Below are positions 43,531 to 48,644 of a stretch of 64,000 nucleotides of DNA, piece after piece. The position numbers and the translations under genes were made by a program. Each line of letters starts with the position of its first letter. Position 1 is the stretch's first letter. The stretch covers positions 29,036 to 93,035 of the forward strand of contig CAZAZX010000003.1 in NCBI GenBank assembly GCA_964489885.1, given 5' to 3'. This stretch comes from an uncultured Lachnospiraceae bacterium. Its GTDB lineage: Bacteria > Bacillota > Clostridia > TANB77 > CAG-508. The notes below the pieces were generated by a model. It ran no database searches, was not told where the DNA came from, and worked only from the letters and a program-made list of their open reading frames with translations.

Positions 43531-46236
43531 TTATATGTTCAAAGTACCTTCTTCATCCATTATTAATAATAACATCTCAGATGCTGACCACAAGTGTGTT
43601 GGTGCTATTCTATTATTTATATAATAAGATTCATCTAGCATTTTGGTTGATTCAAAGTTAGCTTTTGAGCCACACATTTCATACGATAAAGGATAAATAT
43701 TGCTATTTGCGTAAAATGGAACTTTTTTAAAGTAGTGATATTGTGCTATTCCCAAATATTGAAAATGTCTTCCAACATAATATCCTCTATATTCTTTTGT
43801 TCCTCCTTCATTCCACCATGTTAGTTGGTTATATTCTCCGCTTCTTTCTTCCCATATTTTATTTAGATTGTTCACCATTGAAAGCTTACTAATTCCTAAA
43901 TCATACCATTTATTCTGGTACACTTCTTTAACAGAACCATCTGTTAATCCAGATATATAATTTCCGTTCTTATTTTCACTTGCTAACCTATTTGCTTCTG
44001 CTATAATTTTATTTACTAATTCCTTATGTTCATTTTCTGATGTTGATATTATATACAATAGTTCTCCTAAATTATCAGGTTTAGAGGCACCATTTTGATT
44101 ATCATATACGTTTTCAATATTATCTATAAACTTTTCAATTAAATCAGTATTATTAGTGTTTTTTAACACCATTGCAGCTAATGCGGCATCTCTATACCAT
44201 ACATCATCATATACTAAAATATTTGGTATTGGTTTACTATCTTTAATATTAAATAAAATTTCAGAATAAAGGACTTTTTCTACATTTGGATATTTTCCAT
44301 TTGAAAAATCTTTTAAGTTAATTTTAGTATTATCAAGTGCCTCTGTTGTATTATTATCATTTATGAAAATTCCGTCCTCATTTTCATAAATTTTAATAAA
44401 GTGATTATCAATTGTTTGAATGATGACTGTATACTCATTTGGTATTACAAGAAAATCTTTTACATTCCATTTTTTTATTACTTTTTTGTTTTCTATATCA
44501 TTTAGCCTATTTGTGTTAAAAATTATTTTCTTTCTATTTCCCATACCAAAAAAGTAAAAATTCTTACTTGATGAAACATTTGTTAAATTACAATCATGAT
44601 TTTTTACAAATGTTTCATATTCTTTGAGATAGTTTTGATAAGATTTATACTCATTCGAAAAATTTCTTTTTAAATCATTTGTTATAGTTGTACTTTGAAT
44701 TTTTTCACTTATATTAAAGCCCATAAAATTCCCGTAATTTGGTGTTATTGAAATTCCAATAAAAACTGTTTTTAATAAAATAACTAAAGCTATCAATCCA
44801 ACTATATTTAAAATTTGTATATCTTTATTTCTTATCTCGTTTATCAATTTCTGAATTGCTTTTATTATTAAGAAAAATATCAAACTTACAAATATTACAA
44901 AAAATAATAAAAATAAAATTAGTTCTATATTGCTAAAGTGCGAAGTAAAATATGGTCTTGGAAGTATCTTTTCATTTATTTTTAAAATAGTAAAAAATTC
45001 TTTTAAATTTTTTGTTATTTCACATAACAATATTGCTACTAAAATAATAAAGTTTACTTTTTCTACTTTAGCACTTTTTATCTCTCCAAAATTAATAATC
45101 AATAATAAAAATGGTAAGTAAATTAAGTTTTGAGAATATAAAAAGCTTTCTGAATTTCCATATATAAAATGTAAAGTTGTATTAAAAATTAATGTCAGTA
45201 ATAGCCCTACATTCATCCATACATTATTTTTAAAATTCCTAATAGTGTAATATAAAACCAACATATAGAAAAGAATTGATATAATTAAAAATGGCTGTAC
45301 TTTATCTGAAAAATAATAAGATGTTGAATCAGTCTTATAAATATTTTCATCAAAATTTGTATTATATATATCGGAACTAATAAAGCCATTCAAATACATA
45401 TTATTTATTACATTTTTTAAATTTTTCTCCATTGAGTCAATTCTCATATAATTTACTTCTTCTGTTGAATTATTTTCTACATTTGTAATAATAGCTGTGT
45501 TATGCCAAACCATATTTTGATAAAAAGATAAAAATACACATAAAATCAGTGTTATTATGTTTACTATTAAAAAACTTTTTGCTTTTAATTTGTTGCTTAA
45601 TAACAATATTATAGTTGCAATTATAAAAACAAAATAGTTAGTAATTGTTACAGATATATTAAATATTCCTAAAAGAATTAGATAGTAAACCATATTTTTT
45701 TCATTTACTTTATTTTTAAATATTTTAGCAACATAATACCATAATAGCAATAAAAATAATTGTGAATAGCAATATGTTTCAATTATAGCTGAAAATACAA
45801 TATTCGAAAAAGTAAAACCAAAAACTAATGAAATAATGATTTTGTATTTTGTTGAAATATTGTATAGTGTTCCTATTTTATAAACAATAGCTACGGAAAT
45901 TGCTGAAACAATACTTGATAATATTATACAAGTTAGAGTTGTATTTGAAATTAATCCATTTAATATTAAAACTATAGGTTGAAAAAATAAAACAAATAGA
46001 GGATGTACTTTTGTTCTATAATGATTTCTAAACACATCTCCTAAATCAGCCTCTACTCTATTTATATCGGAACCAAAAATAATATCATTAGTTGTTAAAT
46101 CACTAAAATATGATAAAAACATCCCTAAAGTTAAATATACTATGAAGAAAAAAATAAATATTAGTCCTTCTATTTTTCTATCTTTATTTGTTTTAAAATA
46201 TTTTTTTACAAAATTTAGTGCTTTTAAATTATACAT
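43531..46236 (-). CDS. Polytopic membrane protein, GT-C-like N-terminal domain (~480 aa, ~12 TM) plus large extracytoplasmic C-terminal domain (~420 aa), 901 aa
   Basis: Many predicted TM helices; acidic first extracytoplasmic loop (GSDINRVEADLGD); soluble C-terminal domain with DDVWYRDAALAAMVL. Its start overlaps the stop of the UbiA-family gene, giving operon context. Confidence 0.55.
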   Translation of the reverse strand: MYNLKALNFVKKYFKTNKDRKIEGLIFIFFFIVYLTLGMFLSYFSDLTTNDIIFGSDINRVEADLGDVFRNHYRTKVHPLFVLFFQPIVLILNGLISNTTLTCIILSSIVSAISVAIVYKIGTLYNISTKYKIIISLVFGFTFSNIVFSAIIETYCYSQLFLLLLWYYVAKIFKNKVNEKNMVYYLILLGIFNISVTITNYFVFIIATIILLLSNKLKAKSFLIVNIITLILCVFLSFYQNMVWHNTAIITNVENNSTEEVNYMRIDSMEKNLKNVINNMYLNGFISSDIYNTNFDENIYKTDSTSYYFSDKVQPFLIISILFYMLVLYYTIRNFKNNVWMNVGLLLTLIFNTTLHFIYGNSESFLYSQNLIYLPFLLLIINFGEIKSAKVEKVNFIILVAILLCEITKNLKEFFTILKINEKILPRPYFTSHFSNIELILFLLFFVIFVSLIFFLIIKAIQKLINEIRNKDIQILNIVGLIALVILLKTVFIGISITPNYGNFMGFNISEKIQSTTITNDLKRNFSNEYKSYQNYLKEYETFVKNHDCNLTNVSSSKNFYFFGMGNRKKIIFNTNRLNDIENKKVIKKWNVKDFLVIPNEYTVIIQTIDNHFIKIYENEDGIFINDNNTTEALDNTKINLKDFSNGKYPNVEKVLYSEILFNIKDSKPIPNILVYDDVWYRDAALAAMVLKNTNNTDLIEKFIDNIENVYDNQNGASKPDNLGELLYIISTSENEHKELVNKIIAEANRLASENKNGNYISGLTDGSVKEVYQNKWYDLGISKLSMVNNLNKIWEERSGEYNQLTWWNEGGTKEYRGYYVGRHFQYLGIAQYHYFKKVPFYANSNIYPLSYEMCGSKANFESTKMLDESYYINNRIAPTHLWSASEMLLLIMDEEGTLNI

Positions 46237-47098
46237 ACATTACAACTCCCATATAAAGAACATAAACTAGCGATAATATTTTTAATGTTGTATCACTTTG
46301 TAGTACATCAATTGGGTCAGCTAAAGATTCTTTTTCAATTATAAGACTATATTTTAGCATAATCATAATAACCAAGCAAATGCTCCATATTAATAATTGA
46401 TTATCATTTTTTAATATACACCATAGAGAATAAAATACTAAAGTCACTGCTAAAAACACATACATATTATTTGTAAGAAAATTGTCATTATAATATTTTA
46501 AAACCTCTCTTTTGGATTCTTTAACTATTCTTAATTCTCCTCTGCGTTTTCCTATTACAAAGAATATAGACAAAGAAAGAATTGTTAAATATAACCAGTT
46601 AGATACTTCTATTCCTGTAATTTGACCTCCATATAAAACTCTTATAACAAAACCGAAAGTTAAAATTGCAATATCTATGATTGGGACATTTTTTAATCCC
46701 TTACTATATAAAATATTTAATATAACATAAGATATCATCATTAAAATTGATATTATGTTCTGTTTAATATCAAGTAACCCACATATAAATAATAAAACTT
46801 GTATCGTCATACTAATTATTAATAATATACATAAAATTATCTTTGCCCTTTTCATAGATATTTGGCCTGATGCTATTGGTCTCAATTTTTTCGTTGGATG
46901 CTTCCTATCTTTTTCAACATCACATAAGTCGTTAAATATGTATACAACCGAAGTAATTAATGAAAATGATACAAATGCTATACAAGTTGTTATTAGTAAT
47001 TTAATATTCAATAAACTACCACTAAATATTAGCGGTAAAAATATTAATGTGTTTTTTACATAATGATTTACTCTAAGCAATTTAAAATATTTTTTCAT
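46229..47098 (-). CDS. UbiA-family prenyl-phosphate phosphoribosyltransferase-like protein (decaprenyl-phosphate 5-phosphoribosyltransferase / DPPR synthase family), 289 aa
   Basis: N-terminal LRVNHYVKNTLIF and first Asp-rich motif NDLCDVEKDRKHPTKKLRPIASGQIS. Eight or more TM helices and a length matching Rv3806c-type enzymes. Confidence 0.65.
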   Translation of the reverse strand: MKKYFKLLRVNHYVKNTLIFLPLIFSGSLLNIKLLITTCIAFVSFSLITSVVYIFNDLCDVEKDRKHPTKKLRPIASGQISMKRAKIILCILLIISMTIQVLLFICGLLDIKQNIISILMMISYVILNILYSKGLKNVPIIDIAILTFGFVIRVLYGGQITGIEVSNWLYLTILSLSIFFVIGKRRGELRIVKESKREVLKYYNDNFLTNNMYVFLAVTLVFYSLWCILKNDNQLLIWSICLVIMIMLKYSLIIEKESLADPIDVLQSDTTLKILSLVYVLYMGVVMYV

Positions 47099-47109
47099 TT
47101 TTTCCCCTT

Positions 47110-48558: not shown

Positions 48559-48596
48559 CTTAAATTCCCTTCTTTAGTAAAATAATTTTCGATAAA

Positions 48597-48625
48597 ATTA
48601 TATCAAACATGATATTTTTTTACAA
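48597..48625 (-). promoter_or_regulatory. Putative sigma-A promoter of the membrane-protein/UbiA operon
   Basis: TTGTAA-N17-TATAAT on the minus strand, about 40 nt upstream of the GTG start. Confidence 0.55.
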
Positions 48626-48644
48626 TGATATTTTAATATTTGAT

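Follow-up and report, generated by a model that had tools for sequence, protein, structure and literature searches.

A predicted extracytoplasmic glycosylation operon pairing a UbiA-superfamily phosphoribosyltransferase homolog with a DUF6080 GT-C protein

Pentofuranose decorations shape the antigenicity of bacterial surfaces and their recognition by phages and the immune system. Outside Actinobacteria, the route by which they are made was worked out only in 2024, for Gram-negative O antigens. In that work, Kelly et al. (PNAS 2024; PMC11127046) showed biochemically that a polyprenyl-phosphate 5-phosphoribosyltransferase (PPPRS), a flippase and a GT-C glycosyltransferase add alpha-ribofuranose (alpha-Ribf) to a finished glycan. 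The Citrobacter youngae O1/O2 system is made up of ORF15, ORF14 and ORF12: a UbiA-type PPPRS fused to a HAD phosphatase makes undecaprenyl-phosphate-ribofuranose from phosphoribosyl pyrophosphate (PRPP), a MATE or SMR flippase exports this lipid, and the GT-C protein, ORF12, is the founder of family GT136. Added epimerases give xylofuranose (Xylf) or arabinofuranose (Araf). Further candidates, shown in the supplementary information (SI) Fig. S12 of the same paper, come from Gram-positive bacteria (including a Bacillus strain with several GT-Cs) and from phage. A literature search returned GT136, in the glycosyltransferase sense, only in this founding paper. Here we describe a three-gene operon, g1-g2-g3, on the minus strand of a 64-kb stretch of DNA from an uncultured Lachnospiraceae bacterium (64,000 nucleotides of contig CAZAZX010000003.1, hereafter the window). 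In GroEL sequence, the best named relative of this organism is a "Clostridia bacterium", at 86% identity. The evidence, all of it computational, makes it likely that the operon encodes an extracytoplasmic glycosylation system using a polyprenyl-phosphate-linked pentofuranose donor. Its coding parts are as follows.

47110-48558, minus strand: g1, 482 aa with a GTG start; polytopic GT-C protein of the GtrII family, in the operon but not conserved with the module
46229-47098, minus strand: g2, 289 aa; UbiA-superfamily polyprenyl-phosphate 5-phosphoribosyltransferase (PPPRS/DPPRS-like)
43531-46236, minus strand: g3, whole open reading frame (ORF), 901 aa
44722-46236, minus strand: g3 N-terminal domain (approximately residues 1-505); modelled GT-C fold, DUF6080, predicted pentofuranosyltransferase
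43534-44679, minus strand: g3 C-terminal domain (approximately residues 520-900); modelled beta-sandwich plus (alpha/alpha)6 barrel, glycoside hydrolase (GH)-like, predicted extramembrane

The ORFs bear out the initial annotation of this DNA, which had described three tightly packed or overlapping minus-strand genes: g1 and g2 are separated by an 11-nt gap, and g2 and g3 overlap by 8 nt. The same annotation had placed the g2 product nearer to the mycobacterial decaprenyl-phosphate 5-phosphoribosyltransferase (DPPR synthase, DPPRS) Rv3806c than to UbiA or MenA, quoting two motifs, RVNHYVKNTLIF and NDLCDVEKDRKHPTKKLRPIASGQIS, both of which are present in g2. Pfam matches the protein to the generic UbiA family only. 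Among NCBIfam models, the best matches are three DPPR-synthase equivalogs (183.2, 183.1 and 139 bits), the HAD-UbiA model PRK08238 (152 bits) falling among them, as against 46 bits or less for the UbiA, MenA, CtaB and ChlG models. In a PDB search, g2 aligned over its whole length with Rv3806c of M. tuberculosis (8j8j; E 7e-34, residues 6-286), the next UbiA protein being 4od4 at an E value of 0.006. Both results agree with the earlier placement, and together they lead us to reject a reading of g2 as a quinone or heme prenyltransferase.

Residues with assigned roles in catalysis are largely retained. The g2 protein keeps N56-D57-xx-D60-xxx-D64 (the NDxxDxxxD Mg/ribose motif), K15-N16 and G183-KRRGE188; the NDxxDxxxD, KN and GKRxxE motifs are common to all UbiA proteins encoded next to g3 homologs, and their counterparts in C. 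youngae ORF15 have been shown to be essential (PMC11127046). When the contact roles reported for Rv3806c (PMC10994848) were mapped onto g2 through the 8j8j alignment, seven of the nine contacts to PRPP and polyprenyl phosphate were found to be kept. The cluster binding the PRPP pyrophosphate (Rv3806c R22, K87, R90 and K143, with Y138) corresponds to g2 R9, K70, R73, K136 and Y131, and the lipid-phosphate ligands K28 and K191 to K15 and K184. By sequence, g2 is a member of the UbiA superfamily's DPPR/PPPR-synthase clade; because of this homology and the conserved active-site residues, the predicted activity, formation of a lipid-linked ribose donor from PRPP, is the most likely one. A search for phage carriage of g2 gave a single match, an unannotated 6.6-kb "Bacteriophage sp." fragment (MT837543.1).

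The g3 product is far less familiar. It has no match in a PDB sequence search and only a partial one in Pfam, to DUF6080, a family for which a literature search found no papers; neither INPHARED nor IMG/VR yielded a phage-borne relative. A word-indexed search recovered 15 relatives only, as compared with the 765 cluster representatives (318 at E ≤1e-10) collected by an exhaustive HMMER search of 1.84 billion proteins with residues 1-520. Members of this family fall into two length classes, of approximately 500 aa and of 850-1070 aa. An AlphaFold2 model built from 16 homologs reached a mean pLDDT of 78, with values mostly between 80 and 95 across the membrane and C-terminal domains. The top 26 Foldseek matches to the membrane domain are nearly all GT-C proteins, the exception being the GT-C-like GPI-transamidase subunit GAB1. 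On the strength of this model, we identify the membrane domain as a GT-C glycosyltransferase. The first loop after transmembrane helix 1 (TM1), where GT-C enzymes have their catalytic acid, contains the family-invariant residues D57, R60, D64, H72, R74 and H78-P79. D57, in the first external loop, is an example of the conserved acidic residue that GT-C enzymes in general, and not GT136 alone, carry next to TM1. Further invariant positions are E153, N200, E260, H356 and Y359. The N-terminus of g3 is rich in lysine and the loop preceding the last transmembrane helix (residues 458-473) in lysine and arginine, from which the positive-inside rule predicts an extracellular C-terminal domain.

In the model, approximately residues 520-900 fold into a beta-sandwich and then an (alpha/alpha)6 barrel, an arrangement that resembles families GH65, GH95 and GH15 and is that of clan GH-L-like folds. 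The initial annotation was right to assign g3 a GT-C-like N-terminus; the large extracytoplasmic domain that it had placed at the C-terminus is not a generic one but a predicted GH-like (alpha/alpha)6 module. Searches of Pfam, NCBIfam and PDB with the single sequence returned no significant relative of this domain, and a profile of 22 sequences still found none in Pfam or PDB. Six acidic residues are invariant (D683, D712, D721, D766, E853 and E887) and could not be superposed on known catalytic residues. The domain also exists as a stand-alone protein family, with homologs of 340-430 aa in Planctomycetota, where they carry signal peptides, and in Kiritimatiellae and Clostridia, where they do not (loci L049, L054, L067, L070 and L071, at approximately 8860-12400; also L029-L069). 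Metagenome-assembled genomes (MAGs) of Clostridia encode a cytoplasmic, 339-aa form between an aldo-keto reductase/4Fe-4S ferredoxin gene and a gene of the ADP-ribosylglycohydrolase family, and in the examples checked GH123 and GH77 genes flank this neighbourhood. As stand-alone homologs sit in a catabolic setting, the C-terminal domain of g3 may be an enzyme and not a binding module alone. The family may represent a new GH-like family, for which a tie to ribosyl substrates is conceivable.

Conservation of the gene neighbourhood was assessed in eight loci (L001-L008) obtained through five contig look-ups and in 79 more from a scan of GTDB species genomes with an alignment of eight g3 sequences, ORFs being labelled by hidden Markov models (HMMs) built for this analysis. 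Among 43 non-redundant clusters with the g3 membrane domain, 36 encode a UbiA protein with DPPRS motifs no more than 3 kb away; most of the exceptions end at a contig edge or have the UbiA gene at 4-6 kb. By contrast, no such UbiA gene was found in any of the 38 control loci carrying the stand-alone C-domain only (542 kb in total; Fisher p 1e-18). A HAD phosphatase, stand-alone or fused, accompanies 27 of the 43 clusters, and some of the related loci have GtrA, separately or as a fusion. HAD domains are fused to the N-terminus of g3 homologs (P0002, P0003 and P0006; loci L009-L011, L017 and others), to UbiA (L005) and to GtrA (L006, L031, L036 and L050), and GtrA is itself fused to g3 homologs in P0009 and P0010. 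The co-occurrence (36/43 versus 0/38) and the fusion proteins lead us to conclude that g2 and g3 are functionally coupled. The conserved unit is the g2-g3 pair and not the three genes that had been presented as one system: g1 does not share in the co-conservation, its relatives occurring without UbiA. Loci L012 and L013 likewise carry the pair in minimal form, overlapping by the same 8 nt and set among housekeeping genes.

In some of the HAD domains fused to g3 homologs, motif I appears degenerate, reading NFDGT in P0002 and showing no clear DxD in P0003, while P0006 keeps DFDKT; judging from these sequences, some lineages may have an inactive fused phosphatase.

A Pfam census of 134 ORFs flanking g3-type genes in 25 loci, counting families matched by at least two ORFs, gave HAD (12), GT4-type (7), GtrA (6), ABC-2/ABC (4-5), acyltransferase-3 (3), LCP (2) and PRPP synthetase (2). 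Of these, the GT4, ABC-2 transporter, LCP and acyltransferase families are typical of wall-polymer loci. The PRPP-synthetase-like genes stand directly beside UbiA(-HAD-g3) in two loci from Saccharibacteria MAGs (L023, 5498-6433; L024, 14131-15063) and fit a dedicated supply of PRPP for the pathway.

The clade of g2, the predicted GT-C folds and the co-conservation of g2 with g3 thus support the core of the initial annotation, namely that a DPPR-synthase-like UbiA enzyme and GT-C proteins serve lipid-linked pentofuranose glycosylation. In the proposed pathway, g2 would form lipid-linked ribose from PRPP (the PPPRS step), after which the 5-phosphate would be removed and the lipid-linked ribofuranose flipped outward, both by enzymes encoded outside the operon. 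In most related loci, a HAD phosphatase and a flippase of GtrA type would take these two steps, in many cases as fusions with the UbiA or g3 homolog. At the outer face of the membrane, g3 would use its GT-C domain to move the pentofuranose, with invariant D57 in the first external loop as the likely catalytic base, onto a cell-wall polysaccharide or teichoic-acid-like polymer, the probable acceptor because related loci are embedded in wall-polymer clusters. The fused GH-like domain would probably bind the acceptor glycan and might possibly trim it. The module comes without an associated epimerase, which makes D-ribofuranose the most likely sugar and polyprenyl-phosphate-ribofuranose the most likely donor, in line with the earlier suggestion of a ribose rather than an arabinose donor.

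The arrangement is closest to the three-component system of Kelly et al. As in that system, a UbiA-type PPPRS with its catalytic residues kept adjoins, in a clustered gene pair, a GT-C protein that bears an extra C-terminal extracytoplasmic domain; the lack of an epimerase likewise predicts Ribf, and relatives of g3 are accompanied by a HAD phosphatase and an SMR/GtrA-type flippase, as are the candidates in SI Fig. S12. The differences are several. There is no HAD/PRP domain fused to g2, and neither a phosphatase nor a flippase (MATE, SMR or GtrA) in cis. The g3 protein falls in Pfam DUF6080 and may or may not belong to GT136 as well. Its C-terminal module is predicted to be a GH-like beta-sandwich plus (alpha/alpha)6 barrel, in place of the Ig-like carbohydrate-binding module of ORF12. 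The operon contains a second GT-C protein, g1 (GtrII family), and, since the Clostridia-like host is presumably monoderm, the acceptor is not an O antigen. The initial annotation had called such a system uncharacterised in Firmicutes. This holds insofar as no Firmicute system has been tested experimentally; the concept itself has been demonstrated by Kelly et al. (PMC11127046), who also listed Gram-positive candidates. With the pathway concept already published, what is new here is the DUF6080 GT-C, the GH-like fusion and the absence of a phosphatase and flippase in cis.

Other known systems share parts of this design. The arabinan pathway of mycobacteria and corynebacteria (Rv3806c, Rv3807c, DprE1/E2, Rv3789 and Emb/Aft) has in common with the operon a DPPR synthase to which g2 aligns over its full length with most contacts kept, and GT-C enzymes (AftB, AftA and AftD) whose folds those of g3 and g1 resemble. 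It differs in having DprE1/E2 and a PAP2 phosphatase, in the lack of sequence similarity of the operon's proteins to Emb/Aft, in its sugar (arabinose, against the ribose predicted here) and in its lipid (C50, against presumably C55). In the pilin arabinosylation system of Pseudomonas aeruginosa PA7 (PsPA7_6246 PPPRS, DprE1/E2 homologs and TfpW), a DPPRS homolog and a GT-C are likewise combined outside Actinobacteria; that system possesses DprE1/E2 homologs and places Araf on pilin, whereas nothing in the present locus suggests a protein acceptor or epimerisation. Gtr-type glucosylation (GtrA/GtrB/GtrC of Shigella and Salmonella phages; CsbB/YfhO, GtlA/GtlB and Csd in Firmicutes) follows the same logic of making a lipid-phosphate sugar inside, flipping it and transferring it to a finished polymer by a GT-C. 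Further points in common are that g1 is a member of the Pfam family GtrII, that the window ends in a GtrB-like GT2 gene and that related g3 loci contain GtrA. Here, however, the donor synthase of the operon is a PRPP-dependent UbiA protein and not a nucleotide-sugar GT2, and g3 showed no phage relatives.

A further-reaching proposal would make the DUF6080 GT-C a second family of polyprenyl-phosphate-pentofuranose transferases, apart from GT136, and the fused (alpha/alpha)6 module a catalytically active member of an undescribed GH-like family. We hold this combination to be rather improbable; if true, g3 would be bifunctional, trimming and ribosylating a wall glycan outside the cell. More speculatively still, in the minimal UbiA-g3 pairs without a phosphatase (the window, L012 and L013) the transferred group could be ribose-5-phosphate, providing an anionic wall decoration.

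Other features in and around the operon are listed below.

48625..48597, minus strand: promoter-like sequence TTGTAA-N17-(TG)TATAAT 5' of g1; 10/12 matches, extended TG
43482-43513, minus strand: terminator-like hairpin directly after the g3 stop codon; dG -14.1 kcal/mol, z -4.4 versus shuffles, then UUUUAU
48643-48697: hairpin and T-run closing the alanyl-tRNA-synthetase-like gene upstream of the operon; dG -13.6, z -3.5 versus shuffles
63418-64000, minus strand: C-terminal part of a GtrB-like GT2 (polyprenyl-phosphate hexose synthase type); runs off the window end

The operon region (44001-48000) has the lowest G+C content in the window, 0.21-0.25 versus approximately 0.29 elsewhere, and a weaker GC skew. 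Horizontal acquisition could explain this, as could the codon content of membrane proteins alone. Immediately downstream of the operon (42835-43278 and 43290-43480, both minus strand), a VbhT/Fic-like toxin gene is preceded by a small VbhA-like ORF. Its frame breaks inside the HPFxxGNGR motif (...HPFRERKWENN and a stop in one frame, ...ENGNGRTIREF... in the next), which suggests either a FicTA module with a frameshift or an error in sequencing. The alanyl-tRNA-synthetase-like gene on the upstream side (48719-50470, minus strand) encodes 583 aa only, comprising the catalytic core and the second additional domain without the usual bacterial C-terminal part. Farther away, a YezG-like immunity-protein gene (53995-54702, minus strand) is inserted between the enolase and phosphoglycerate-mutase genes of a glycolytic cluster.

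A number of observations weigh against the pathway proposed above. The two best NCBIfam scores of g2 fall below the curated DPPR-synthase equivalog cutoffs (207 and 234 bits), for which reason we regard the protein, from its sequence, as a divergent member of the clade, PPPRS-like rather than an equivalog; two Rv3806c contacts are changed as well (Y157 to F150 and K208 to E198). Pfam scans of window ORFs of at least 100 aa outside the ribosomal-protein block found no HAD or GtrA gene, nor any DprE1/E2 or PAP2 gene, the latter two absences having been noted from the outset, and a search of every window ORF of at least 70 aa with HMMs for HAD and GtrA gave no match either. As neither the operon nor the 64-kb window holds a phosphatase or flippase gene, two steps would need genes elsewhere in the genome. 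That these functions must be so supplied is the main weakness of the model. The window also contains no polysaccharide gene cluster. Finally, g1 lies outside the conserved module, its relatives being orphan GtrII-type GT-Cs. As for the promoter, its match by itself is weak, since promoter-like sequences show no enrichment in this AT-rich stretch (50 found against 58.5 expected). The single promoter that had been proposed is thus present as a site, with an extended TG, and its function is plausible but unproven, the argument for it being position, in a 160-nt intergenic gap right after the hairpin and T-run of the upstream gene, rather than the motif. Finally, g1 lies outside the conserved module, its relatives being orphan GtrII-type GT-Cs.

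Some of these points bear on alternative explanations. A reading of g2 as a common aromatic prenyltransferase (of the MenA, UbiA or CtaB type or the like), and of the membrane proteins as unrelated transporters or O-antigen-ligase-like proteins, could draw on the generic Pfam name and the missed NCBIfam cutoffs; the NCBIfam ranking, the Rv3806c alignment and the GT-C folds of both g1 and g3 effectively refute this view, to which we give next to no credence. The same machinery could instead handle arabinofuranose or xylofuranose if an epimerase encoded elsewhere (DprE1/E2-like, or an SDR like ORF13) acted before flipping. The GT-C can be promiscuous, with the epimerase setting the sugar (PMC11127046); the survey for an epimerase covered the 64-kb window, part of a contig of at least 111 kb, leaving room for one elsewhere in the genome; and the need to place the phosphatase and flippase elsewhere already implies dispersed components. 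Nevertheless, the window contains no epimerase, no DprE1-type (FAD_binding_4/ALO) or SDR-epimerase family recurs among the 134 flanking ORFs, the Pfam tables of L001-L008 show no epimerase family beside the module, and the published systems have their epimerase gene in one cluster with the rest. A sugar other than ribofuranose therefore seems unlikely to us.

The place of g1 is much less clear-cut. As the initial annotation had it, this is a 482-aa polytopic GT-C-like protein: its fold is of the GT-C type, and it scores 58 bits against Pfam Glucos_trans_II (gathering score 30; residues 33-332), and we assign it to the GtrII family. It may act independently of g2 and g3, as a Gtr-type GT-C that uses undecaprenyl-phosphate-hexose from the GtrB-like GT2 at the window edge and merely shares the promoter, a reading to which we give slightly less than an even chance. 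Four relatives of g1 were found; those at 38% and 35% identity stand alone among housekeeping genes with no UbiA gene nearby. In Listeria, Bacillus and Lactococcus, a GT-C encoded on its own normally relies on a GtrB-type synthase encoded at a distance. A GtrB-like gene does exist in the same window: the partial ORF at its edge, already recognised in the initial annotation, matches the local GT2 HMM and has the typical C-terminal two-helix anchor. It is a possible alternative supplier of donor for g1, the link to the operon being drawn by inference only. On the other side, g1 stops 11 nt short of g2 behind the sole good promoter-like site, and other g3-type loci have a second GT-C (DUF6056) between the UbiA/HAD genes and g3, or two g3 paralogs; systems with multiple GT-Cs were also remarked upon by Kelly et al. 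(PMC11127046). The g1 protein has no similarity to these DUF6056-type proteins and a weak one to g3 in profile comparison (probability 48%, E 2e-4), so that, by sequence, the three are distinct families. In the proposed glycosylation system, g1 would either add the same sugar at another site or draw on another lipid-linked sugar, such as a product of the GtrB-like enzyme.

A related arrangement is found in a cultured Firmicute. The exopolysaccharide (EPS) cluster of Lactococcus cremoris plasmid pF27D (NZ_CP068515.2; L092, 7596-12659) contains, consecutively, genes for a 462-aa polytopic hypothetical protein, a DPPRS-like protein (annotated "decaprenyl-phosphate phosphoribosyltransferase", 39.7% identical to g2), a HAD-IB phosphatase and GtrA, with an LCP gene one gene beyond on the opposite strand. 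The 462-aa protein has no Pfam match and only a marginal match to g3 (E 0.66, GSD...PL loop) and could not be placed in the g3 family. A literature search found no paper describing this module. From its gene content, the cluster predicts a pentofuranose-decorated EPS, and it offers a tractable, cultured entry for seeking ribofuranose in Gram-positive walls or exopolysaccharides.

The window locus and its approximately 40 relatives come mainly from MAGs of uncultured Bacilli, Clostridia, Saccharibacteria and Gastranaerophilales, a number of which derive from gut or rumen samples. Together they suggest that monoderm and candidate-phyla bacteria have a branch of the pentofuranose route that runs in parallel and is unstudied. 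The gene fusions frequent in this branch reveal partners in the pathway, one of its enzymes carries an attached GH-like domain without a characterised relative, and the enzymes themselves are concretely testable.

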